NCBI GenBank assembly: GCA_034659295.1
Contig: JAYEGX010000074.1
Span: 1 to 32,163, forward strand
Source: Candidatus Altiarchaeota archaeon
GTDB taxonomy: Archaea > Altiarchaeota > Altiarchaeia > IMC4 > QMZM01
Reading direction: 5' to 3'
DNA length: 32,163 nt
Positions 11,020 to 32,161 of this stretch are shown here, piece after piece. The translations under genes and the position numbers were made by a program. The notes under the pieces were generated by a model. It was given only the letters and a program-made list of their open reading frames with translations, was not told the origin of the DNA and ran no database searches. Numbering within the stretch: position 1 is the first letter of the stretch; each line of letters opens with the position of its first letter.

Positions 11020-13935
11020 CTAAGCCTCTTTTTCTTTGCTTTTCAGGCCTTCAAGCTCAACCTCGACATCTATAAGCTTTTTCTCATAATCCTGAACCAG
11101 AGACCTGTATGCTTGCTCATCTATCTCTCTCTTGTGGAACTTAAACCTAGCCCGCATAATTTTCTTGTTGAATTCCTCATTCTTAACTTCCAGAGTATTC
11201 AATCTCTCCCTTTCCTCCGATGATAGTGACGGCTTCAGGCGTTTCCTTTCGGTTTCAACAATCTTTTTCATCTCCTTTTTTTGGTTGGATAACATGGCAA
11301 AGGTCTCTACATCCTCTAACAGCTTTTTATATTCTTCCTTGCTATCACGTTCCTCCATCTGCTTCTTTGCCTGTGAATACCAGGGGGGTAGGGAGGATTC
11401 AACATCCTCAATTACATCAAGGAAGTCATTCATTTCAACACCCCTTCTTAAACCGCCCTCGACAGCCTCCTGCCAGGGGATTTCAGAGGCTCTATTACAT
11501 ATCTCTTGTATATCAGCCGAGGAGTATCCATCAGTTAACTCGGCGAGCATCTCAACATTAATTTTCTCATCGACTGGTATGTCTCGCATATGAACCATGA
11601 AAATCTCAGCCCTCGCCCGCTTATTCGGCCTTGAGACCAGGATTTTTTTAGAGAACCGTCCGGCTCTCTTGATTGAGGGGTCCAGGATCCATGGAAAGTT
11701 GGTGGCCGCTATAACCATCAACATCTTGTTTTTCTTTGAGTTATCTAATTCCTCAAGGAGTATGTCCACTATACGTCTTTCTTTACCGGTGAGCAACAGG
11801 TCTCTTCTCATGGCTAAAGCATCTAGTTCATCAAAGAACAATATCGCTGGAGTGTTCTTGTTAGCTCTCTCAAATATCTCCCTGACATTCTTCTCGGATT
11901 GACCATCCTTGTCAGATATTATATCTGTTATTTTCACATCAAAAAAAGAGGCCTTGCACTCGCCTGCTGCAGCCTGCACTACATAGGTTTTACCACATCC
12001 TGGGGGGCCGTATAGTAGGATTGAACCAGCTTCCTTCCTGAACTCCTTAGCCAGATCCTCCCTCATCAGGGGGTAAACAATATTCTTTTTTATCTCATCC
12101 TTCACGTTCTTTAGATTACCTACATCTGCGAAGGTCAGCTGGGGCTTAACTGCTTCATCAATCCCGCCCCCGTATTTGAGTATATGCTCAGAGAACTTCT
12201 TGAACCATTCTGTCTCACCGCTATCCCTTATCTCTTTCGCAGCAATCTTGAACCAGGGAATCAGGGAAGACTTTTGTTTTTCTATAGCGGCCATAAAATC
12301 CTTTATGGAGATCTCTCTTTTTCCCCCACCATCCAACGCCTCCTGCCAGGGCCTGTCAGCAGCCTGATCGCAGATGACTTTTATGTCAGATGACGAGTAG
12401 GATTCTGTTAACTCCGCCAGTTTCTCGAAATCTATGCCGGAAGATATTGGAAGCTTCTTGGTGTGTAGTTTAAATATCGCTAAACGGGTTTCAAGATCAG
12501 GGGGTGGGATAAATATTTGTTTGGTAAACCTGACAGACCTCCTCAGGGCCGGGTCAATGTTCCAGGGAACGTTTGTGGAGGCCATAACCAGCACATCCTC
12601 TCCCAGACTGTCAACTCCATCCATCTCCATCAGGAACTGGTCTATTTCCATCTTCTCCGCATAGGAGCGGCCCTTAACCCTTCGACCTCCTATCGCGTCT
12701 ATCTCATCAAAGAATATTATCGCAGGAGAGCTTCTCCTAGCCTCCTCAAATACCTCATGAAGGCTTCTGGCGCCCTCCTCCACCCCACGGGATATGATGT
12801 CGCTTATGTTGACGTTAAAAAATACGACACCGCATTCCCCTACCGTCGCCTTAGCTATGTAGGTTTTACCGCATCCTGGAGGGCCATAGAGCAGGATTGC
12901 CCCACCGCCTTTTTTCCCGAACTCCTTGGCCAGCTCCGGCTTGGTCAGGGGATATACTATCGCCTGCCTGATCTCGTTTTTTATGCCCTCTAAATTAGCG
13001 ACATCAGAGAAATTTATGGTCGAAGCCTCCACCGGAACAGCATTCTTAGAACCTATGGCTGTTCCAATAGCTACCGGCTTAAGTGGTTCCCCCCCCATGA
13101 TTGTTGATTTAGGCATGGCGTTCCTGCAAACAGGGAAGTGCATTTTCGGTTCGATCTTCATGTGCTGCTCGCTCTTTTCTCTAACACCCTGCAGATAAGG
13201 CAGTAATGTGATGCCCTCCAGCTCAACCTTTCCGCTGAATAACAGACCAAGAACCTCGCTTATTTTGTCTATGGAGTACTTGATTTTGTCTTTATCATAT
13301 CCTGCGACCGTGATTTTTGTTTCCTTCAGGTGAGCGGATAGATCCCAGCCATCGTCCCTGAAATGTGGGAAATCGTAGTTGAATTTCACCCTCCTTTTCA
13401 CAAGAATCTCCTCATCACCTGAGCTGAATTCCTGCCATAGGGTAGCTAGCATAACCTTTAGGGAGGGTTTGAATGATTTAACCAGGGCAAGCCGCTCTAG
13501 ATCCAAAACAGATTCCATATTAAGCTCATCATGGAATATCCACTCATGTGCCATCAGCTGACCCAGCGTGTTTATTGATTTATTTGGAAGGTCTATTATC
13601 TTCCTCAGTAGGTCGTAGGTGTCCACTCTGACAGATTGGAGCGGGATTTTGGAGGGGAAATGATACATGTCTGCTGTGCTCAGATCAACGTAGAAGTAGT
13701 TGTCCCTGATTTTGTAGATTGTCTCGGTGGCTATCAGGCCTTTTTTCTCTTCCTCCTGGTGGGATATCTTAAGCCTTGCCAGGGGCCTGTAGGCTTTTTT
13801 CAGCTCCACAGCCTCGTGGGTTATCGCTCTCTTAAGAGAGCCTACAGGAGAGTCCTCTAACGCCCCCAGCTCAGCTATCTTCTCGGCTGCTTTTGATATG
13901 GCGAAAGAGCTGGTTTCAACCCTCTTAATTTTCAT
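11020..13935 (-). CDS. Tandem AAA+ ATPase (two classical AAA modules) with unrecognised N-terminal domain and C-terminal coiled coil
   Basis: Two GPPGCGKT Walker A motifs, IIFFDEID and ILFFDELD Walker B motifs, SRH STNVPW..DPALRRSVRF and ATNFPW..DPSIKRAGRF. The ~300-aa N-terminus does not look like the CDC48 N-domain. Confidence 0.9.
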   Translation of the reverse strand: MKIKRVETSSFAISKAAEKIAELGALEDSPVGSLKRAITHEAVELKKAYRPLARLKISHQEEEKKGLIATETIYKIRDNYFYVDLSTADMYHFPSKIPLQSVRVDTYDLLRKIIDLPNKSINTLGQLMAHEWIFHDELNMESVLDLERLALVKSFKPSLKVMLATLWQEFSSGDEEILVKRRVKFNYDFPHFRDDGWDLSAHLKETKITVAGYDKDKIKYSIDKISEVLGLLFSGKVELEGITLLPYLQGVREKSEQHMKIEPKMHFPVCRNAMPKSTIMGGEPLKPVAIGTAIGSKNAVPVEASTINFSDVANLEGIKNEIRQAIVYPLTKPELAKEFGKKGGGAILLYGPPGCGKTYIAKATVGECGVVFFNVNISDIISRGVEEGARSLHEVFEEARRSSPAIIFFDEIDAIGGRRVKGRSYAEKMEIDQFLMEMDGVDSLGEDVLVMASTNVPWNIDPALRRSVRFTKQIFIPPPDLETRLAIFKLHTKKLPISSGIDFEKLAELTESYSSSDIKVICDQAADRPWQEALDGGGKREISIKDFMAAIEKQKSSLIPWFKIAAKEIRDSGETEWFKKFSEHILKYGGGIDEAVKPQLTFADVGNLKNVKDEIKKNIVYPLMREDLAKEFRKEAGSILLYGPPGCGKTYVVQAAAGECKASFFDVKITDIISDKDGQSEKNVREIFERANKNTPAILFFDELDALAMRRDLLLTGKERRIVDILLEELDNSKKNKMLMVIAATNFPWILDPSIKRAGRFSKKILVSRPNKRARAEIFMVHMRDIPVDEKINVEMLAELTDGYSSADIQEICNRASEIPWQEAVEGGLRRGVEMNDFLDVIEDVESSLPPWYSQAKKQMEERDSKEEYKKLLEDVETFAMLSNQKKEMKKIVETERKRLKPSLSSEERERLNTLEVKNEEFNKKIMRARFKFHKREIDEQAYRSLVQDYEKKLIDVEVELEGLKSKEKEA

Positions 13936-14038
13936 TTCATTAGATATTGCCTTTTATACCTTTTATAAACACTTGGTTTTTTAGTCTGGTGCTTCTAAAT
14001 AGAATACAGTAGAGGGAATTAACTTCAGGCAGGTAATT

Positions 14039-14224
14039 ATGGATGAAAAAAATGCGGGTGCGGGTTCTGGAACCAAAACGCTTAAAAAGCCGTCTAGAGA
14101 ATCTAAAGTGAAGGAAGGTAGTGATGAAGCGCTTATGGCGGCCATAGTCTACGCTTTATACGGTACCTACGCATGCTACAAGGGTGAAGATTTCAGGTAC
14201 GTTGCCATAGCGGATATGTTATAA
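14039..14224 (+). CDS. Small hypothetical protein
   Basis: 61 aa; stop overlaps the next ATG (TAATG), consistent with translational coupling; short hydrophobic helix EALMAAIVYALY. Confidence 0.4.
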   Translation: MDEKNAGAGSGTKTLKKPSRESKVKEGSDEALMAAIVYALYGTYACYKGEDFRYVAIADML

Positions 14225-14916
14225 TGGAGGTGGAAAAGATGAAATACAATATTAGGGGAACAACACTGCAGGTGGTGGATATCGAACTAGAGGAGGGTGA
14301 ATCAGTTTACACGGAGGCTGGGGGTATGGCATGGATGTCCCCCAACATAGATATGGAGACCAACACCCGTGGCGGGATTATGAAAGGCCTTGGTAGGATG
14401 TTCGCAGGAGAATCTCTTTTCATGGCAACCTACACATGCAATAAAGGCACTGGATTGATATCTTTCGCCAACGAGTTCCCGGGAAAGGTTATTCCCATGG
14501 AATTGAGGGAGGGGGAGAACATAATAGCCCAGAGAGACGCTTTCATGTGCGCTGAATCAACGGTGGGTATGCAAATGCACTTCAGGAAAAAACTGGGTGC
14601 AGGCCTCTTTGGTGGTGAGGGTTTTATTATGCAAAAATTATCCGGTCCCGGAACTGCATTCATAGAGCTTGCGGGTGAGATAACGAAATACACCCTTAAG
14701 GGAGGGCAGATGCTTAAGGTGGACCCTGGATACATTGGTATGTTTGAACCGGGTGTGGAGTTTGATGTGACCCGGGTTAAGGGAGTCAAGAACATATTCT
14801 TCGGGGGGGAAGGCATGTTCCTGGCTACATTGAAGGGCCCTGGTGATGTGTGGCTGCAGTCCATGCCGTTATCGAACCTCGCCGGGAGACTGGGAAGATA
14901 CCTGCCTAAAGGATAA
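14224..14916 (+). CDS. TIGR00266/AIM24-family protein
   Basis: GESVYTEAGGMAWM, FAGESLF, GLFGGEGFIMQKLSGPG, FFGGEGMFLATLKGPGDVWLQSMP. Confidence 0.92.
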   Translation: MEVEKMKYNIRGTTLQVVDIELEEGESVYTEAGGMAWMSPNIDMETNTRGGIMKGLGRMFAGESLFMATYTCNKGTGLISFANEFPGKVIPMELREGENIIAQRDAFMCAESTVGMQMHFRKKLGAGLFGGEGFIMQKLSGPGTAFIELAGEITKYTLKGGQMLKVDPGYIGMFEPGVEFDVTRVKGVKNIFFGGEGMFLATLKGPGDVWLQSMPLSNLAGRLGRYLPKG

Positions 14917-20829: not shown

Positions 20830-21147
20830 TTAGACATATACCATACCCTCCTTGATATCTTCAGCAACTTCTTTGATTCTTATGCCCTTCACACCTTCAG
20901 GGGTTAGGAGGTCTATTTTTTTATCTAAGAGTTTCTCGATGTAGTCTGCAAAATCTATGAATTTAAGGCCTATCGGTTTTTCAAACTCTATCAGGAGGTC
21001 TATGTCACTGTCTTCCCTCTCGGTTCCTCTTGCAAGAGATCCGAATATGGCTATCTTTTTCACCCCATAGGTGGAGCTTGGATAGGGGAGTTCGTTTCTT
21101 AATACCTCAATCGCTTCATCTTTGCTCATTTTAATTTCGTCTCCCAT
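20830..21147 (-). CDS. Minimal nucleotidyltransferase (MNT), no adjacent HEPN partner
   Basis: YGVKKIAIFGSLARG...SDIDLLIEF (GSx10DxD), LLDKKIDL. Confidence 0.9.
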   Translation of the reverse strand: MGDEIKMSKDEAIEVLRNELPYPSSTYGVKKIAIFGSLARGTEREDSDIDLLIEFEKPIGLKFIDFADYIEKLLDKKIDLLTPEGVKGIRIKEVAEDIKEGMVYV

Positions 21148-22615: not shown

Positions 22616-23027
22616 TCACTCCAGATGCTTTGATACGTATTTTGCGAATTCTTCGAAGTCGTCTAGTCGGGTTTGGAGGTTGTTGTATAGTTCATCTACG
22701 TCGATTTTTGAGTAGGCGTGGACCAGGATGTTCCTGAATCCTGCTGCTGGGGCGAATTTTTCTGCGAATTCTTCGGGTATTATGTTGTTTTCGCCTAGGA
22801 TTTGTATCACCTCCCTGTAGCTTTCGGGTTTTCCAAGACCTTCTTTGGAGATGATTATTTCGCCGACGTCGAGGATGCATTCCAGGGAGACCTGCATGTA
22901 TCTCTCTGTCGCTGCTTTGAGTGTTTTATTGTCTCGTATGTCTTCTATGGGGGTGTTACTGGTATTCCCTGAGTATTTTCATGTATTCGCTGAGCTGCTC
23001 TAGTTTTGATATTATTTCTTTTTTCAT
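22616..23027 (-). pseudogene. hepT: HEPN/DUF86 toxin (HepT-like) interrupted by an in-frame TAA
   Basis: ATG at 23027 overlaps the antitoxin stop (ATGA). Translation MKKEIISKLEQLSEYMKILREYQ*HPIEDIRDNKTLKAATERYMQVSLE..., with TAA at 22958-22956. The downstream frame keeps GFRNILVHAY (RX4HXY). Confidence 0.85.
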
Positions 23028-23461
23028 GTTAGTCCTCTCTGGATTATCCGGTTTATTGCTTTTCTTGTGTGTTTTTCGTTGTAGTATTTTCTGTCCAGGT
23101 ATTGTGATAGGGTTTTGGCTTCGAACATCACTCTTTTTGTTTCGTGGGTTGAGGTTATTAGTCTCCCGGATTTCAGTGCATTGTATCGTAGGGTGGTTGG
23201 GGCGTTGTTCATTATGATGACGTCTATGTTGTCTGTTCCCATGATCTGGGTTAGGTTGTTTATTAGTTTGAGTTTTATTTCTGTTTTTTTTTCTTTGGTT
23301 AGTGATTCGTCGAGGTAGAAGGCAAAGTCTATGTCGCTGAGTTTTGTTTCTCTTCCTTCGGCTATTGAACCGAATATGTAGGCTGATATAACGCCTTCTG
23401 TGTTGTTGATGCTTTTTTTCAGTTGTTTTTCTCTGGACTGTAGTTTTTCGCTGAGGTTCAT
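23024..23461 (-). CDS. mntA: MntA-type nucleotidyltransferase antitoxin
   Basis: AYIFGSIAEG..SDIDFA, IDVIIMNNAP..LRYNAL; directly upstream of the HEPN gene. Confidence 0.9.
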   Translation of the reverse strand: MNLSEKLQSREKQLKKSINNTEGVISAYIFGSIAEGRETKLSDIDFAFYLDESLTKEKKTEIKLKLINNLTQIMGTDNIDVIIMNNAPTTLRYNALKSGRLITSTHETKRVMFEAKTLSQYLDRKYYNEKHTRKAINRIIQRGLT

Positions 23462-25869: not shown

Positions 25870-28110
25870 TTAACTGTAGTAGTTACATTCGTCTTGTCTA
25901 TATGATGTATACGGGTCATCGGGGCACCCGTCCAAGTGGGGTTTTAGCGCAAAATCCTTAAGATGACCGTAGGCTGCGGGCCCGAAACAGGAAATGGGAG
26001 TGTAGTATGACATGATGAAGTCTTTTCTAATATCTTCATCTTCTGGTGGAATAACTCCTCCCTCACTTTTGCTGCAGTCAGGGCAGTTAGGATAACTGGG
26101 GCAGGCATCACAGTTTACTCCTCCTCCGTTAACGTGCGCGAAACCTAGAGTGTGTCCTAATTCATGCGTCGGGACCAATAGATCAGAAATTTCCCAGTCT
26201 CTTTTAACAGCCGCTCCTATAGAAGGGATGCCTCCACATTTACCTGTCGAATCATGATCGTTATGTGAGCTTATGGCAAGGAATTTATCATAGATTACTC
26301 CTTTATCACTTAAACATTCGTATGCTTTTTCAATGCAATCATTCAGATCCTTTGCACATTTTTCTGGTCCGCAGTCGCTTGGTTGAAGAATCACCGGAGC
26401 TACTTTTGCTGTACAGATACGGAAAGGAGTCTTGTCTCTGAATTGAGTTATAACATCATTTGCTTTAGAGTTGAATACGCCTGCTTCACTTTCCTCCCAG
26501 CCCACTGGGACTACTGCCAGCTTAAAGTCTCCTCCTGGTTCAGGAGTGCATCGTTTCACACACCCATATGAAACGCTAGCATCATGGTATCCTCCCGCAT
26601 AATCGCATGTGTTTTCATCACTATCTGATGTAGTAGTGGATTGCTCTATCACGTAGATATCTGTACCTACAATAGAACATACAGTATTTTCATACAATCT
26701 TATATCATGAGAAGAAGATTCTAGTTTAATTCCATCACAATGGTTTTTCTTTACAATGTTGTGTGTAACTGCATCTCCCGAAGAACCATGGATAACAATC
26801 CCCTCCCCTTCGTTTTCGTTCACGGTGTTGTCTGTCAATTCGTTAGCATTTGAGGAAGAAGAGATATAAATCCCACTTTTATTGTTTTCATTCACTGTGT
26901 TGTCTGTCAATTTATTACCATTTGAGGAAAAGAAGATCCAAACCCCATATACTTCGTTTTCGTTCACTGTGTTTTTTGTCAACACATTATTGTTTGAGGA
27001 AGAGATAACAATCCCACATTGCTTGTTTTTGTTCACTGTGTTACCTGTCAAAACATTGTTCTCTGAGGTAGAGATAATAATCCCATCCCCCTCGTTTTCG
27101 TTCACGGTGTTGTCTTTTAATACGTTATTGTTTGAGGTGTCACTGAGAAAAACACCTTTCCAAAATTCCTTAATAGTGCAGTCTTGGATGGTATTACCTG
27201 TTCCACCGATCATATATATCCCAGAGTCGCTACCTCTTCCGTCTATGAAATGTCCTCCGCAATCAAAGGTCACACCATCATTCTCCCAGGTAATGCAGAT
27301 CCCCGGGTAGTCTGATATATCGTCCATCAACAATATAGTATCCCCCTCCTTAGCGTTCTTGATCGCTTCGGTGCAGCTCTCGCAGCTGTCGCATGTGAGC
27401 CCGGCAGGACTGCCGTATTCTGCAAGGACGACATTATCTCCCCACTTAAACTTCACACAGTGCGGTCCCGTATCTTCCGGAGGTAGTTTATCGAGGCTGG
27501 TGCATTTCACCGTTTTAGACTTGCCTCCCTCAACAGTTAAACTGAGTTCACCCTCATTGAACTCGACGCAGGAGGTGGTTATCTCCGTGAAATCAGACCC
27601 CGGTGGCTCCGGCTCACATCCCGTGTCTTTGGCTATATAGAACTCCACCAGATGGGTTTCTGCCGTTCCCCCCTTATTTGTTATACTACCTATAAGCCTC
27701 CGGATGCATGAGCCGCCCACAGGACCTCCGCAGCACCCGCAGTCGAAGCCCCGCTCCATGCACCTATATTCATCAAGACTATCAATACCTAGCGGGTCCC
27801 TACAGCAGTAGGTTCCGGTGTCGGCAGTGCAGGTTTTGGCACCGCATGAGCCTTCCACACCAACATCCTCGCATCCGCCACTGCATTTAAAACAGTATCC
27901 CCCAGATATGCTATGACCTCCACAGGTCCCATAATCAAAACCCTTAGCAACACACATATCCCCGTGGCCTGCAGCCTTGCAGGTATACGGCAGACCATCA
28001 CAGGACTCAGCAGGACATCCATCCTCACAAAGCCAACCCCAGGCCTGAGCAGATACCGGATTACTGCCGATAAATAATACCGCAACCATCAACCAAAATG
28101 TTTTTTTCAT
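25870..28110 (-). CDS. Secreted multidomain zinc metalloprotease (Cys-rich / Ig-like / parallel beta-helix / metzincin)
   Basis: Signal peptide ending VSA|QA; about seven ~23-aa N.L..NTV..N...GI beta-helix repeats; HELGHTLGFAH (HExxHxxGxxH) and Met-turn FIMSY. Confidence 0.87.
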   Translation of the reverse strand: MKKTFWLMVAVLFIGSNPVSAQAWGWLCEDGCPAESCDGLPYTCKAAGHGDMCVAKGFDYGTCGGHSISGGYCFKCSGGCEDVGVEGSCGAKTCTADTGTYCCRDPLGIDSLDEYRCMERGFDCGCCGGPVGGSCIRRLIGSITNKGGTAETHLVEFYIAKDTGCEPEPPGSDFTEITTSCVEFNEGELSLTVEGGKSKTVKCTSLDKLPPEDTGPHCVKFKWGDNVVLAEYGSPAGLTCDSCESCTEAIKNAKEGDTILLMDDISDYPGICITWENDGVTFDCGGHFIDGRGSDSGIYMIGGTGNTIQDCTIKEFWKGVFLSDTSNNNVLKDNTVNENEGDGIIISTSENNVLTGNTVNKNKQCGIVISSSNNNVLTKNTVNENEVYGVWIFFSSNGNKLTDNTVNENNKSGIYISSSSNANELTDNTVNENEGEGIVIHGSSGDAVTHNIVKKNHCDGIKLESSSHDIRLYENTVCSIVGTDIYVIEQSTTTSDSDENTCDYAGGYHDASVSYGCVKRCTPEPGGDFKLAVVPVGWEESEAGVFNSKANDVITQFRDKTPFRICTAKVAPVILQPSDCGPEKCAKDLNDCIEKAYECLSDKGVIYDKFLAISSHNDHDSTGKCGGIPSIGAAVKRDWEISDLLVPTHELGHTLGFAHVNGGGVNCDACPSYPNCPDCSKSEGGVIPPEDEDIRKDFIMSYYTPISCFGPAAYGHLKDFALKPHLDGCPDDPYTSYRQDECNYYS

Positions 28111-28151: not shown

Positions 28152-29987
28152 TCATGGCTCCAACCACTCCACCCTGAGATTCATCAGAATGTCACCGCCT
28201 CCAGTGCATTCTCCTTTGCAGCAGTAGCCTGACTCGCAGGTTCCGGAGACTGTGCTGCAGTCCTCGTATGAGCTGCAGGGTTTTTCCATGCATTTACCGC
28301 CCACATCCACGCAGTCAGGTCTGTCACCGATGAGACCCGGCTCCCAGAGCAGGTCAACCAACATAACAGCTACGCCTATGATAATCAACCCCGCGATCAC
28401 GTAAATCAAACACCTCTTGGATTTCTCCTTTGTCTCCACATCATCTGCTAGGATGAACCTGATGCCGCATACGGCGAAAATCAGTGCAGCTAATATGATG
28501 GACGCCAGCGTTATAGCCTTGTATAAGTCCACCACGCCGATGTTGAATCTGCACTTGCTCTTGCAGACCTGCTTGCACCTTGCTACCGCGTCCTCGCTTC
28601 CCTTGAAGTCATTATCCGCTGGGTCACAGAAGGTATCACAGCAATCAACGCAGTCTTCATCTGCTAGCCCGCAGGGTGCCAGCCCCCCGCAGACGCCGCC
28701 ACACTTCGCGAGACAGTTCCCCTCACCTAGGCTAATTTCCTCAATCTCAACAGGACCTTCCTTCGTGTTGCAGGTGCAGGTGCAGGATACGACTTTGTCA
28801 CCATCACCGTCACCATCACCATCTCCGTCACCATCACCGTCTCCGTCACCATCACCATCACCGTCTCCGTCACCATCACCGTCACCATCCCCGTCACCGT
28901 CACCATCCCCGTCACCATCACCGTCTCCGTCACCACCCCCAGAGCAAGCTCCCATACAACAAGAAAAACCTGAATCGCAGACTCCGTCTGCAATTGGCTT
29001 GCAATCAGTATATTCGCTGCAGTCTTGTTCCATGCACTTACCGCCAACTTTATCACAGGCATCCGAATCACCTAAATGCTTATTTAGAAAACCAAGAAGA
29101 GCAACCATATCTTTATTATTAGGCACACCCTTATAATCTGTTTCAAAAAACCAGCCGAAATTATGATCATAGCCTGTTGTCTCCCTATATTCAAAATACA
29201 CGCCCGCACCCTCAAGCTTATCACGTAATTCCCTGCTCTGCTGTATGGGAACCACATAATCCCCCTTATCATGTATTATAAAAAAGGGGGGATCACCACC
29301 ATCAACATAAGTCACAGCACTATACTTCAATGCCTTCTGATTGCAAGGAGGGTTAGACTCATCGGGCTTACAACCCAAAAGCATATCCAAAAGATTATCA
29401 TGTTCAGGAGGCATACCCTGACCATAGCAACCCCAATAAATACAATCCCAGCAACCCAACCGATAATCCCTACAATACAGAGACAGGGAAAATAGATTCG
29501 ACAAACCAGACATATCAACAACCGCATCAACCGAACCACTGCCCTCAGTCGTCCCATAAAAAGAAGACAGATGAGCTCCCGCCGAACCCCCGATAACAGC
29601 AAACTCCTTAGTATAACCATATTTCTCATATTGCTCTGGACGCTTAAGCCATCTCACAGCGCTGCTAACATCCTCAGTCGGCGCAGGAAACTCCTCCTTA
29701 AGCCGGTAATTAATCGAAGCATAAGCAAAAGAAAAACCATAAGGATTAAGCTCCGGATCATTAAGAAAACCACTATAGTAAGCCCAATGATCTGACTTAT
29801 CCCCACTGATAAAACCACCTCCATGAATGAAAATAACAAGCGGCTTAGGATCCCCCTCAGGAATAGAAAGATCAAGCTTCTGATATCTATCACTCCCATA
29901 CGGCAAATCCTTATGCACAACGGCAGCATCCACAGAATTAACAACCAGCAACAAAACCAAAACAAACACAAACCTCCAATCAACCAT
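28152..29987 (-). CDS. Secreted alpha/beta-hydrolase (HSL-like esterase) fused to Cys-rich modules, a (GD)23 spacer and a TrbC/VirB2-like pilin hairpin
   Basis: Probable start 29987 (MVDWRFVFVLVLLLVVNSVDA); HGGGF, GGSAG, HDKGD and GYDH triad motifs; two TMs separated by ADDVETKEKSKR. Confidence 0.85.
   Translation of the reverse strand: MVDWRFVFVLVLLLVVNSVDAAVVHKDLPYGSDRYQKLDLSIPEGDPKPLVIFIHGGGFISGDKSDHWAYYSGFLNDPELNPYGFSFAYASINYRLKEEFPAPTEDVSSAVRWLKRPEQYEKYGYTKEFAVIGGSAGAHLSSFYGTTEGSGSVDAVVDMSGLSNLFSLSLYCRDYRLGCWDCIYWGCYGQGMPPEHDNLLDMLLGCKPDESNPPCNQKALKYSAVTYVDGGDPPFFIIHDKGDYVVPIQQSRELRDKLEGAGVYFEYRETTGYDHNFGWFFETDYKGVPNNKDMVALLGFLNKHLGDSDACDKVGGKCMEQDCSEYTDCKPIADGVCDSGFSCCMGACSGGGDGDGDGDGDGDGDGDGDGDGDGDGDGDGDGDGDGDGDGDGDGDGDKVVSCTCTCNTKEGPVEIEEISLGEGNCLAKCGGVCGGLAPCGLADEDCVDCCDTFCDPADNDFKGSEDAVARCKQVCKSKCRFNIGVVDLYKAITLASIILAALIFAVCGIRFILADDVETKEKSKRCLIYVIAGLIIIGVAVMLVDLLWEPGLIGDRPDCVDVGGKCMEKPCSSYEDCSTVSGTCESGYCCKGECTGGGDILMNLRVEWLEP
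28797..28934 (-). repeat. Coding low-complexity repeat (Gly-Asp)23
   Basis: 138 nt = 46 codons, with mixed GGT/GGA/GGG and GAT/GAC codons. Confidence 0.95.
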
Positions 29988-30094
29988 CTTTTCTTTTCTC
30001 TCCCACATACACGACACCCCACCGTAACATTATTAATATCTTAGGTTATATATCTGTCCCTGTGATTCCATCACCTTTCTGCGTGCATGTTTCT

Positions 30095-32161
30095 TCAGGG
30101 GCAGGCTACCTCCCTCTGGCCGCTCCACCTGTCCACGTAATCGCATATTGTGTTCCCGGAGGCGTCGTTGAGTTTCACGTGGATAATGGGTCCAGTGCAC
30201 AAAAGCTCATAGAGGGAGTAGGTGCCTATGCCCACCTCCTTGCTCCACTCCATCTCGCATACGAGATAGTCGGCGGTCGATATAATCAACTCTATCACCC
30301 AATAGCATACCATGGCTCCGGCTGCAATAACAATCAAGGCAGGAAGATTCATGGTACAAATCGCCGCCAGTGTTGCAAGCAGGAAGGGCAGTATAAACGC
30401 CAACGTCACCACCAAACCCCCAATGTGCATGTAAAATCCTATCTTCGTAAGGTAGATGTCTCTATTCTCGTATCCTGATGCTATGAGTCTATTCCCTGCC
30501 TCCATAAAGAGTATGCCCAATACAAGCCCGGCTATTGAACCGTATCTGGCGTATTTACTCCGCCCGATATCCCTCAGTTGTTTAATCTCCTCACCCCTCA
30601 CCTTACGCCCATACCCCGAGTAATCGCTGTCATGCTGCCTGTCCAGCTTATCCGCGATCTCCATGTTCTTCTCTATTGCCTCAACCCACCTCCCCTCTGA
30701 CTCCACTATCTCCTTAGTTACCTCCAGCTTACCTGTATCAACAAGGTCCTTGTATTTAGTAGCTGCCTCCCCTCCCTCAGACATGACCTCAATGTAGTCG
30801 TCATAGGATACTCTGTTAAGCTTTTCAAGAAGTTCGGTGAAATGAGTTATCCTGTTTCTCGCAACCTCCTCAGCTGACATGCCCATATAGTCTATAATCT
30901 CCGGAGCCATTCTCAGCTCCCGGATATAATCTCTTGTAGCCTCTATTATCGACCTGACATTTGCTTTATCTTCTGGGGTGATTAGGATACTGTCACCGTC
31001 TAACTCACGCAACATATCCTTCATTTTATCATCCAGTTCCACAATCAGATGCACATCCACTTTCTTGAGATAATACTGTTTCTCAAGCTCTCCGATAATC
31101 TCTTTGTTGATTCTTTCATAGTATTCCACGCGACGGTTTATGACCTTTACCTTATGCTGTACCCCGAGCAGTGAAACAAATTCCGTGATTTTAGCTCTGA
31201 TCAGAGGTAGATAGTGGTCGTAGGTTCCTTTCATGTTATCCGGGTGATTTATGTATTCCGTGATTATGTCCGACGTCATTTTATGATCGTTCATTAGATT
31301 GGCTGCTTGAGCCAGCCTCTTACATGCCTTACCGTATTCTCCCCGTCCCGCATAAAATTCAGCTCCAAGCGACCCGTCGATGATCTCCCCCAGCCCGGTC
31401 CCCATAACCTCCGGCGTGATCTTCAGTTCCCCGAACTGGTCTTGTATATCAGCTAACAGAGCAGAGGGTCCGATAAAAATGTTTTTGGTCATGAGTATGC
31501 GATTCCGCGCACCCAACCTCTCAACAATCTCCCTGAATGTGCCGTCAAACATCAGTTTATCAGGATAAATATCTCTCCCAGCAAACAATGTATCCCTAAG
31601 CTCAAATAATCTGATTGTCACCATATTCAGGATACTCTCCCGCATATTCCGCGGTAAATCCTCTGAAAAGATAACGAAATAATCAAGGTCACTGATGACG
31701 CGATTGAAGTTTATTGACGCCTTCTCCCCCTCCAGCGTGTACCCGTAGGATGTACTCCCGCCGTATACTATAGAAAACTCTCCCTTGAAGCTTGGATCCT
31801 CCGCCTTGAGTTCCGCTAGTATGTCGTTCACAATCCCCTCCGTTGCCTCAATTAGGTTACCTCTTAATTCCCCGTCGATTACCACATCAAGGCTTTCTTT
31901 TGTGAGAGGCTCCGAGGTCCTGTAGCAGCCGCCGCCAGTGCACATCGATGTAACACCCGGCACCGCAATCCGCCGCTGGAATTCACAGAATTTATTCACG
32001 GTCTCCAGGAGGAGACGATTAGCTTCCTCCGCAGGAAGCGCAAGCATTTCCTTAAGTAGGGGGCCGTTTTTTATGAGGTCGGTCTCAAGGGAATCCGCGA
32101 TAAACTTTTTTTCGTCATCAGTGAACTCCCCCAGGTTATTCCTAATTGCCTCAAGCGCGCC
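30095..32161 (-). CDS. Large protein (5'-truncated by the window) with a Pol-beta-like nucleotidyltransferase motif, a helical region and three C-terminal hydrophobic helices
   Basis: The frame stays open from 32047 to the window edge (GALEAIRNNLGEF...GPLLKE|MLALP). IVYGGS...SDLDYFVIF motif; hydrophobic SIAGLVLGILF, IGGLVVTLAFILPFLLATLAAI and LPALIVIAAGAMVCYWVIELII; four-Cys tail. Confidence 0.8.
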   Translation of the reverse strand, partial: GALEAIRNNLGEFTDDEKKFIADSLETDLIKNGPLLKEMLALPAEEANRLLLETVNKFCEFQRRIAVPGVTSMCTGGGCYRTSEPLTKESLDVVIDGELRGNLIEATEGIVNDILAELKAEDPSFKGEFSIVYGGSTSYGYTLEGEKASINFNRVISDLDYFVIFSEDLPRNMRESILNMVTIRLFELRDTLFAGRDIYPDKLMFDGTFREIVERLGARNRILMTKNIFIGPSALLADIQDQFGELKITPEVMGTGLGEIIDGSLGAEFYAGRGEYGKACKRLAQAANLMNDHKMTSDIITEYINHPDNMKGTYDHYLPLIRAKITEFVSLLGVQHKVKVINRRVEYYERINKEIIGELEKQYYLKKVDVHLIVELDDKMKDMLRELDGDSILITPEDKANVRSIIEATRDYIRELRMAPEIIDYMGMSAEEVARNRITHFTELLEKLNRVSYDDYIEVMSEGGEAATKYKDLVDTGKLEVTKEIVESEGRWVEAIEKNMEIADKLDRQHDSDYSGYGRKVRGEEIKQLRDIGRSKYARYGSIAGLVLGILFMEAGNRLIASGYENRDIYLTKIGFYMHIGGLVVTLAFILPFLLATLAAICTMNLPALIVIAAGAMVCYWVIELIISTADYLVCEMEWSKEVGIGTYSLYELLCTGPIIHVKLNDASGNTICDYVDRWSGQREVACP

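Follow-up and report, generated by a model that had tools for sequence, protein, structure and literature searches.

An esterase fused to a VirB2-type pilin hairpin in an Altiarchaeota archaeon: a probable surface-tethered glycan esterase on a pilin-derived anchor

The protein reported here has its closest described counterparts in the VirB2-like pilin arrays of Patescibacteria (PMC12102498; PMC12857230), with which it shares a pair of hydrophobic helices connected by a short charged loop, membership by hidden Markov model (HMM), as well as a genomic background of many divergent paralogues and a monoderm-type VirB3/VirB4 set, with no relaxase or coupling protein evident. No enzyme-pilin fusions are described in these two papers. 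The protein is encoded in the window analysed in this work, i.e., a stretch of 32,163 nucleotides (nt) from Candidatus Altiarchaeota archaeon (assembly GCA_034659295.1, contig JAYEGX010000074.1, positions 1 to 32,163), and it joins an esterase to a pilin hairpin in 611 amino acids (aa). The pilins of Patescibacteria are small stand-alone proteins, whereas this one is archaeal and extends for ~480 aa on the N-terminal side of its hairpin, made up of an enzyme load of 450 residues and a Cys-rich stalk, and for 60 aa beyond it, so that the small size of such pilins (about 70-150 aa after leader removal) is not shared. To our knowledge, the VirB2-type pilins described so far are all small structural subunits, and our literature searches retrieved no description of cargo-bearing VirB2-type pilins or pilin-enzyme fusions, nor of Altiarchaeota with VirB4.

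Three other systems resemble single parts of the protein. PrgK of pCF10 (cited in PMC12102498) is also a surface-tethered enzyme associated with a monoderm-type type IV secretion system (T4SS), but hydrolases of the PrgK type cut murein and have an ordinary N-terminal transmembrane segment, in place of the pilin hairpin and the esterase found here. BD-FAE has been characterised as a feruloyl and acetyl xylan esterase (PMC8165983), which shares with the Altiarchaeota enzyme the Pfam family, the alpha/beta-hydrolase fold, the Ser-Asp-His triad and the HGG oxyanion motif; however, the identity is about 25%, a six-Cys cap insertion is present here, and the characterised enzyme is a soluble product of a polysaccharide utilization locus, whereas the Altiarchaeota esterase is predicted to be membrane-tethered. 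Finally, the staphylococcal Sdr/Clf proteins also have a long acidic dipeptide repeat between a functional head and a cell anchor (the NCBIfam Sdr/Clf models even align to the repeat of the target), but here the repeat is GD and not SD and there is no LPXTG sortase signal, so that the likeness is a design analogy only, with no homology.

On the whole, we consider the protein to be probably a surface-tethered glycan esterase displayed on a pilin-derived membrane anchor. Its features in the window are the following:

28152..29987 (-), whole gene, 611 aa plus stop, ATG at 29987
29922..29987 (-), Sec-type signal peptide, aa 1-22 (MVDWRFVFVLVLLLVVNSVDA/A), read directly off the sequence
29064..29921 (-), BD-FAE-type alpha/beta-hydrolase esterase, aa 23-308, from Pfam, conservation, AlphaFold2 (AF2) and Foldseek
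29814-29825 (-), HGGG motif of the esterase, aa 55-58
29583-29585 (-), Ser135 of the esterase, within GGSAG
29259-29261 (-), Asp243 of the esterase
29163-29165 (-), His275 of the esterase
28935..29063 (-), first 8-Cys module, aa 309-351
28797..28934 (-), (GD)23 acidic linker, aa 352-397
28545..28796 (-), 14-Cys stalk, aa 398-481, comprising a beta-hairpin, two short helices and the start of a long helix
28344..28544 (-), VirB2-type pilin hairpin, aa 482-548, from PF18895 and paralogue alignment
within the hairpin, hydrophobic helix 1, about aa 489-514
28413-28445 (-), hairpin loop DDVETKEKSKR, aa 515-525
within the hairpin, hydrophobic helix 2, aa 526-548
28194..28313 (-), second 8-Cys module, aa 559-598, beyond helix 2

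The gene is real, because its product matches BD-FAE with an E value of 1.7e-33 and because syntenic orthologues with the same architecture exist in Candidatus Altiarchaeales archaeon ex4484_2 and in a metagenome contig of ENA. A misassembly or a chimeric open reading frame (ORF) is ruled out by the identical architecture and synteny in independent assemblies. A longer open frame (28152..30017, minus strand, 621 codons) would start from an alternative GTG at 30017; the signal peptide is recognised from a hydrophobic window (residues 1-8+19) followed by VDA/A. The 8-Cys motif occurs twice in the whole genome, both times within this protein; the second module resembles the first to the point of being a near-duplicate, and it is 88% conserved in the orthologue. 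The order of these elements had been proposed in a first-pass annotation made from the letters of the sequence (signal peptide, hydrolase with triad, Cys module, (GD)23, Cys-rich domain, two transmembrane helices with a loop, second Cys module) and was reproduced by independent parsing.

As regards the hairpin, residues 488-547 match the Pfam model T4SS_pilin (PF18895) with 36.0 bits against a curated cut-off of 26.6 (39.9 bits in the genome scan), as the first-pass annotation had anticipated. A six-frame scan of the genome to which the window belongs (1.27 Mb in 106 contigs, 69% complete) revealed 27 matches to the same model, 17 of which above the cut-off; this threshold was passed in only 1/14 control genomes, 11 of the 14 giving weak matches (E<=1). 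An alignment of the hairpins reveals a polar pattern common to their loops, G-x-[KR]-[WF]-I-x-S-x-x-P-E-x-R-x-x-A-K, to which the target conforms with conservative changes, and therefore the match does not reflect just hydrophobicity. Moreover, over 60 residues the target hairpin is 35% identical (E 1e-7) to a 141-aa pilin encoded on contig C41 of the same assembly, which is the best-scoring copy (PF18895 52 bits and TrbC 40.6 bits, both above cut-off). Judged from these sequence profiles, the hairpin is shown to be a homologue of the VirB2-type (T4SS) pilins.

It is known that VirB2-type pilins in the membrane pool have both termini outward and the loop inward. In the protein described here, a helix-loop-helix with a short charged loop is indicated by hydropathy and by an AF2 model of the stalk plus hairpin (helices 68-116 and 120-151 of the module), and two near-duplicate disulfide modules lie on the two sides of the hairpin, so that the membrane must be crossed an even number of times from one to the other; the predicted topology is thus N-out, loop-in and C-out. 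Two cysteines, Cys507 (28467-28469) and Cys526 (28410-28412), stand at the inner ends of the two helices, flanking the loop, and are invariant in the closest paralogues and in a relative (C16, C30 and L021); while the hairpin is membrane-embedded they would be in the reduced form, and its release could allow them to pair.

The hairpin is preceded by a 14-Cys stalk, and the two together form a unit found well beyond this gene. A word-indexed homologue search of residues 398-611 returned one orthologue only, and an exhaustive profile search was needed to reveal the family: a 156-position stalk-plus-hairpin profile, scored against 1.84 billion representatives, matched 484 proteins at E<=1e-3, 140 of which also pass the stricter limit of E<=1e-10. 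The same 14-Cys stalk is common to the target, to three other proteins of its genome (encoded on contigs C16, C30 and C55) and to the 484 database clusters. In the AF2 model, built with 41 family sequences, residues 1-150 of the module have a predicted local distance difference test (pLDDT) score >90 (as do the two helices mentioned above), and a beta-hairpin and two short helices cap a helix of 49 residues, which is followed by a turn and by a return helix of 32 residues. The family proteins examined were the top profile hits plus a few near-identical cluster members. A single full module was present in 109 of them: 39 have the cargo C-terminal to it, 30 N-terminal and 12 at both ends, whereas 28 have none. 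Hairpin chains make up 48 of the top database matches, with 2 to 10 or more copies each and up to 18 matched stretches in a protein of 1775 aa. Among the 81 single-module proteins that were scanned, PF18895 is matched by 80 and TrbC by 26 (E<=1e-3); their recognisable cargo consists of SLT (4), PKD (3), beta-helix/NosD (2), M23, M64, a Hedgehog-type peptidase (HH_signal) and crystallin, and BD-FAE is a single case. Close homologues of the anchor module carry the names Candidatus Altiarchaeales archaeon ex4484_2, Candidatus Altiarchaeales archaeon ex4484_96 and Candidatus Altiarchaeota CSMAG_1619.

The first-pass annotation had proposed a search of the genome for the same hairpin with different cargo, and such proteins were indeed found. 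Besides the target, the full module is present in the C16 protein (512 aa, cargo before the module), in the C30 protein (562 aa, cargo after it) and in a 969-aa PKD protein on C55. As far as can be judged from sequence, the stalk plus hairpin is a reusable, self-contained module across one order of Altiarchaeota. It occurs either bare, in pilin-like proteins, or with cargo at either end, including murein hydrolases, glycoside-hydrolase-like, PKD and beta-helix adhesin-like domains, and the esterase. Chains of hairpins also occur in this genome: the ORF at C75:6540-10403 (-), open at the contig end, encodes at least 1287 aa with repeated Cys-rich heads, a (GD)18 tract and ten PF18895 hairpins (about 20 membrane spans), and C106:1-1774 (-) encodes a signal peptide, five to six hairpins and a tail of TTTTGTV repeats.

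The analysis of the orthologous locus in related genomes disclosed an exchange of the cargo. The only close homologue of the whole fusion in an index of 5.8 billion proteins is P0002, 72% identical overall, and the same protein is present in ex4484_2. A third species (L022, matching G017) has, in the slot located directly after the gene for a ~1423-aa membrane protein, a protein of more than 1050 aa, in which stalk and hairpin are 76-78% identical to those of the target and the loop is identical, the cargo being composed of DUF5060, an Apiosidase-like catalytic domain, Collagen_bind_2 and two Flg_new_2 repeats. The anchor also recurs in two more congeners, once with 60% identity in a 327-aa frame and once with 43% in a 414-aa frame. 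Since the esterase domain occurs in only 2/49 genomes of the order and its other nearest relatives are bacterial (about 30-34% identity), it was presumably acquired recently, in one genus, and joined to an anchor that already existed. In a comparison of the two esterase-bearing species, the identity is 61% for the esterase, 80-82% for stalk plus helix 1, 100% for the loop and 91% for helix 2, which suggests that the surface cargo evolves fast while the anchor is conserved. The VirB4 proteins of the same two genomes are 96% identical; set against this value, the 61% of the esterase (in the comparison with G016/L023) represents an unusually fast divergence for a surface enzyme, with the catalytic residues kept.

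The identity of the esterase is solid. The Pfam model BD-FAE (PF20434) is matched with 116.4 bits (cut-off 26.8) from position 2 to 215 of its 215. In a comparison with 29 homologues, His55, Gly56, Gly57 and Ser135 are invariant and His275 is nearly so; Asp243 and Gly58 are kept in the orthologue P0002, and Asp243 aligns to the Asp of 6xyc. The best sequence matches in the PDB are the carbohydrate/acetyl xylan esterases 6xyc and 6tkx and the GH43-CE 6mly. The AF2 model of residues 23-308 (pLDDT about 90) retrieved by Foldseek 6nkf, 6xyc, 6tkx, 6mly and the feruloyl esterase 4zrs, with E values from 1e-15 to 1e-18 (6xyc 9e-18, with a template modelling score of 0.72 normalised to the target; 6tkx 2e-17). 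Six Cys residues lie in the cap region. A carbohydrate esterase is therefore the best-supported class, as predicted from sequence and fold, a lipolytic activity being the weaker reading; and, since a glycoside-hydrolase-like domain is located at the same slot in the sister species, the data point to a predicted action on acetylated or feruloylated polysaccharide, either environmental or belonging to a neighbouring cell.

Esterase and anchor are joined by the (GD)23 linker, whose coding DNA is an imperfect repeat (81-89% matches) and thus not a fresh slippage artefact; in the AF2 model the linker is disordered. The sole other (GD)n tract with n>=8 in the genome, the (GD)18 of the 1287-aa C75 protein, also directly precedes hairpins, which suggests that the acidic tether is part of the design. 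Two sets of matches, i.e., Pfam TrAA12 at 347-402 and the NCBIfam MSCRAMM models, were discarded as artefacts of the GD repeat. The length of the acidic linker varies between the near-identical assemblies L021 and L023.

The genome also encodes a minimal T4SS gene set, located as follows:

C41 7546-11249 (+), 141-aa pilin, 292-aa PrgI/VirB3-like protein and 765-aa VirB4-like ATPase

The ATPase (C41 8952-11249) matches the CD1110 family (E 7e-82) and VirB4_CagE (E 2.7e-38), and the 292-aa protein also matches the N-terminal part of VirB4 models, as in a split VirB4. The VirB4-like ATPase for which the first-pass annotation had advised searching is therefore present, beside a VirB3-like gene and a small pilin; a pilin HMM match and an assembly ATPase, whose absence that annotation had regarded as fatal to its proposal, are both found by HMM. 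An SPFH/Band-7 protein follows the C41 VirB4 gene. The distribution of these genes was assessed in 61 genomes of the phylum, 49 from the order of the window and 12 from other orders. PF18895 hairpins occur in 48/49 genomes of the order (2-30 per genome) and the VirB4 orthologue (55-96% identity) in 45/49, both being found in 0/12 genomes outside it. No genome has VirB4 without hairpins, and three have hairpins without VirB4, including genus g5 (2-6 hairpins). A comparison of coordinates shows that at least 19 genomes have a small pilin gene no more than 2 kb away from VirB4. This distribution fits a chromosomal, vertically inherited VirB2-VirB3-VirB4 set. In G043 and G045, VirB4 is contained in frames of about 1550 aa.

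If these parts are read together, the Sec signal peptide would take the N-terminus out of the cell, where the esterase, the first Cys module, the (GD)23 linker and the disulfide-rich stalk would fold; helix 1 would then run inward through the membrane, leaving the charged loop in the cytoplasm, and helix 2 would run back out, the second Cys module consequently being outside as well. We infer the substrate class, as well as any handling of the hairpin by VirB4. Several observations weigh against this interpretation. TrbC/VirB2 (PF04956), the second pilin model indicated in the first-pass annotation, gave only 15 bits on the target, below its cut-off of 27.9. A Foldseek search of the PDB with the stalk-hairpin model had a best E value of 1.5 and no solved pilin among its matches, and a 23-sequence hairpin profile scored against PDB sequences retrieved chance matches only (GPCRs and designed proteins) and no VirB2, TraA or CedA chain, although both kinds of search cope badly with short helical hairpins; the pilin link is for this reason carried by sequence profiles. 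The esterase-pilin gene is not adjacent to the VirB3/VirB4 genes, and TraG-D_C (VirD4-type coupling protein) and Pfam TrbL/VirB6 gave no match above their cut-offs in the 69%-complete genome. The joint pattern of hairpins and VirB4 follows a single clade and is thus not independent evidence of a functional link. The load of 450 residues at the N-terminus is far beyond that of any polymerising VirB2 pilin known to us, and the choice of substrate is based on distant relatives (about 25-34% identity).

Among the alternatives, the one that survives best, though we hold it to be rather doubtful, is that of a true enzyme-bearing pilin, in which VirB4 would extract the hairpin and co-polymerise it with bare pilins, giving a filament either decorated with esterases on acidic tethers or carrying the esterase to a target cell. 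Such a filament would agree with the stalk being common to bare and cargo-bearing proteins, with the outward orientation of both termini that is general knowledge for the VirB2 type, with the conservation of the loop and of helix 2 (100% and 91%) against that of the enzyme (61%), and with the co-occurrence of hairpins and VirB4. However, the incomplete genome of the target yielded no gene for a bare stalk plus hairpin, the locus is unlinked to VirB4, the cargo represents a steric load, and neither VirB6 nor VirB5 was found by HMM in the same genome.

A different function for the esterase, i.e., that of a lipase or phospholipase directed at the membranes of other cells, would correspond to the lipolytic enzyme proposed in the first-pass annotation, and we regard it as unlikely. 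The hormone-sensitive lipase (HSL)-type hydrolase with full triad described there retains its triad, but no full-length match to the HSL family above cut-off was obtained. The lipolytic reading is favoured by the partial matches to Abhydrolase_3 (44 bits, covering only positions 1-85 of the 210 of the profile) and to the hormone-sensitive-lipase-like models, and by the lipase name carried by 6nkf, the top Foldseek match; nevertheless, the 116 bits of BD-FAE are far above the 44 of Abhydrolase_3, all the NCBIfam lipase equivalogs are far under their cut-offs (LipP1 and HaHSL, 35-41 bits against 320-350), and in the sister species the same anchor slot carries a glycoside-hydrolase-like domain. 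The term "lipolytic" is thus doubtful, the top sequence and fold matches being carbohydrate esterases.

An even less probable scheme is that of a precursor, in which a protease would cut the junction between linker and stalk, so that the esterase would be set free and the remainder would become a mature pilin; poly-hairpin proteins would likewise be cut into single pilins. VirB2/TraA propilins are generally known to be processed, ORFs with 5-10 fused hairpins exist in the genome, and the linker, disordered in the model, would be accessible. On the other hand, no conserved cleavage motif was seen in the linkers between hairpins, many members of the family bear their cargo after helix 2, where a cleavage of the leader type is not applicable, and the second Cys module would stay attached to the pilin.

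The last possibility, a generic two-helix membrane anchor unrelated to pilins, whose Pfam match would derive from hydrophobic composition, is disfavoured and appears very improbable, given that the missing structural match to solved pilins and the weak PF18895 hits in most control genomes are set against a score above the curated cut-off that just one control reaches, a conserved polar loop motif and not only hydrophobic helices, the 35% identity to a pilin encoded beside VirB3/VirB4, and the PF18895 and TrbC matches of 80/81 and 26/81 family members.

The genes surrounding the fusion are arranged in a conserved order. The window contains an A-type ATPase operon and genes for archaeal Nre, ThiDN, a Cdc48-type AAA protein and SecDF. 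The esterase-pilin gene is co-directional with its neighbours, with gaps of 77, 41 and 9 nt, and its two flanking genes are:

30095..32161 (-), upstream partner gene, C-terminal 688 aa of the ~1423-aa membrane protein, front half at C30:2841-5056
25870..28110 (-), downstream neighbour, 746-aa Cys-rich secreted NosD/beta-helix protein, 41 nt from the esterase-pilin gene

Contig C30 abuts the end of the window and supplies the first half of the 1423-aa gene, together with a further hairpin protein. The ~1423-aa membrane protein has no Pfam match; in L021, L023 and L022, its gene immediately precedes the anchor gene with the variable cargo. The order of genes kept in the relatives is hairpin protein, 206-aa protein, ~1423-aa membrane protein, esterase-pilin, NosD, ThiDN, ArgZ-like, Nre, KaiC and TrkH, the NosD gene being 3' of the esterase gene in the relatives too. 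The 746-aa NosD protein bears a C-terminal HELGHTLGFAH (metzincin-like) motif; in ex4484_2, the gene at this position encodes only 381 aa, without this end. Genes for MNT-type nucleotidyltransferases lie beside the locus in the window (20830-21147 and 23024-23461, both on the minus strand), and in a relative (L021:11207-12051 and 13852-14497) the nucleotidyltransferases are paired with HepT-like genes, in a HEPN/MNT toxin-antitoxin-like arrangement.

The elements that are new here are the esterase as a class of cargo, the defined stalk-hairpin module, the swap of cargo between orthologous loci and the order-wide co-distribution with VirB4. The stalk-plus-hairpin profile provides a searchable definition of a family of 484 clusters, whose cargo is mostly of unknown kind, and the replacement of the esterase by a glycoside-hydrolase-like domain is a natural experiment in which anchor and enzyme evolve as separate modules. 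It is tentatively conceivable that, in one order of Altiarchaeota, a conjugation-type machine (VirB3/VirB4 plus pilins) has been converted to the purpose of surface display. VirB2-type pilin units with their disulfide-rich stalk would act as general carriers, between which enzymes and adhesin-like domains are exchanged; pulled out of the membrane and built into a filament, or delivered by it, they would project exchangeable polymer-cutting enzymes, such as the esterase on its (GD)23 tether, onto substrates or neighbouring cells. If true, the pilin unit as a carrier of interchangeable enzymes would represent a new way to place catalysts on the cell surface or on a filament, and it would offer a handle on how the uncultured, small-genome Altiarchaeota interact with polymers or with other cells.

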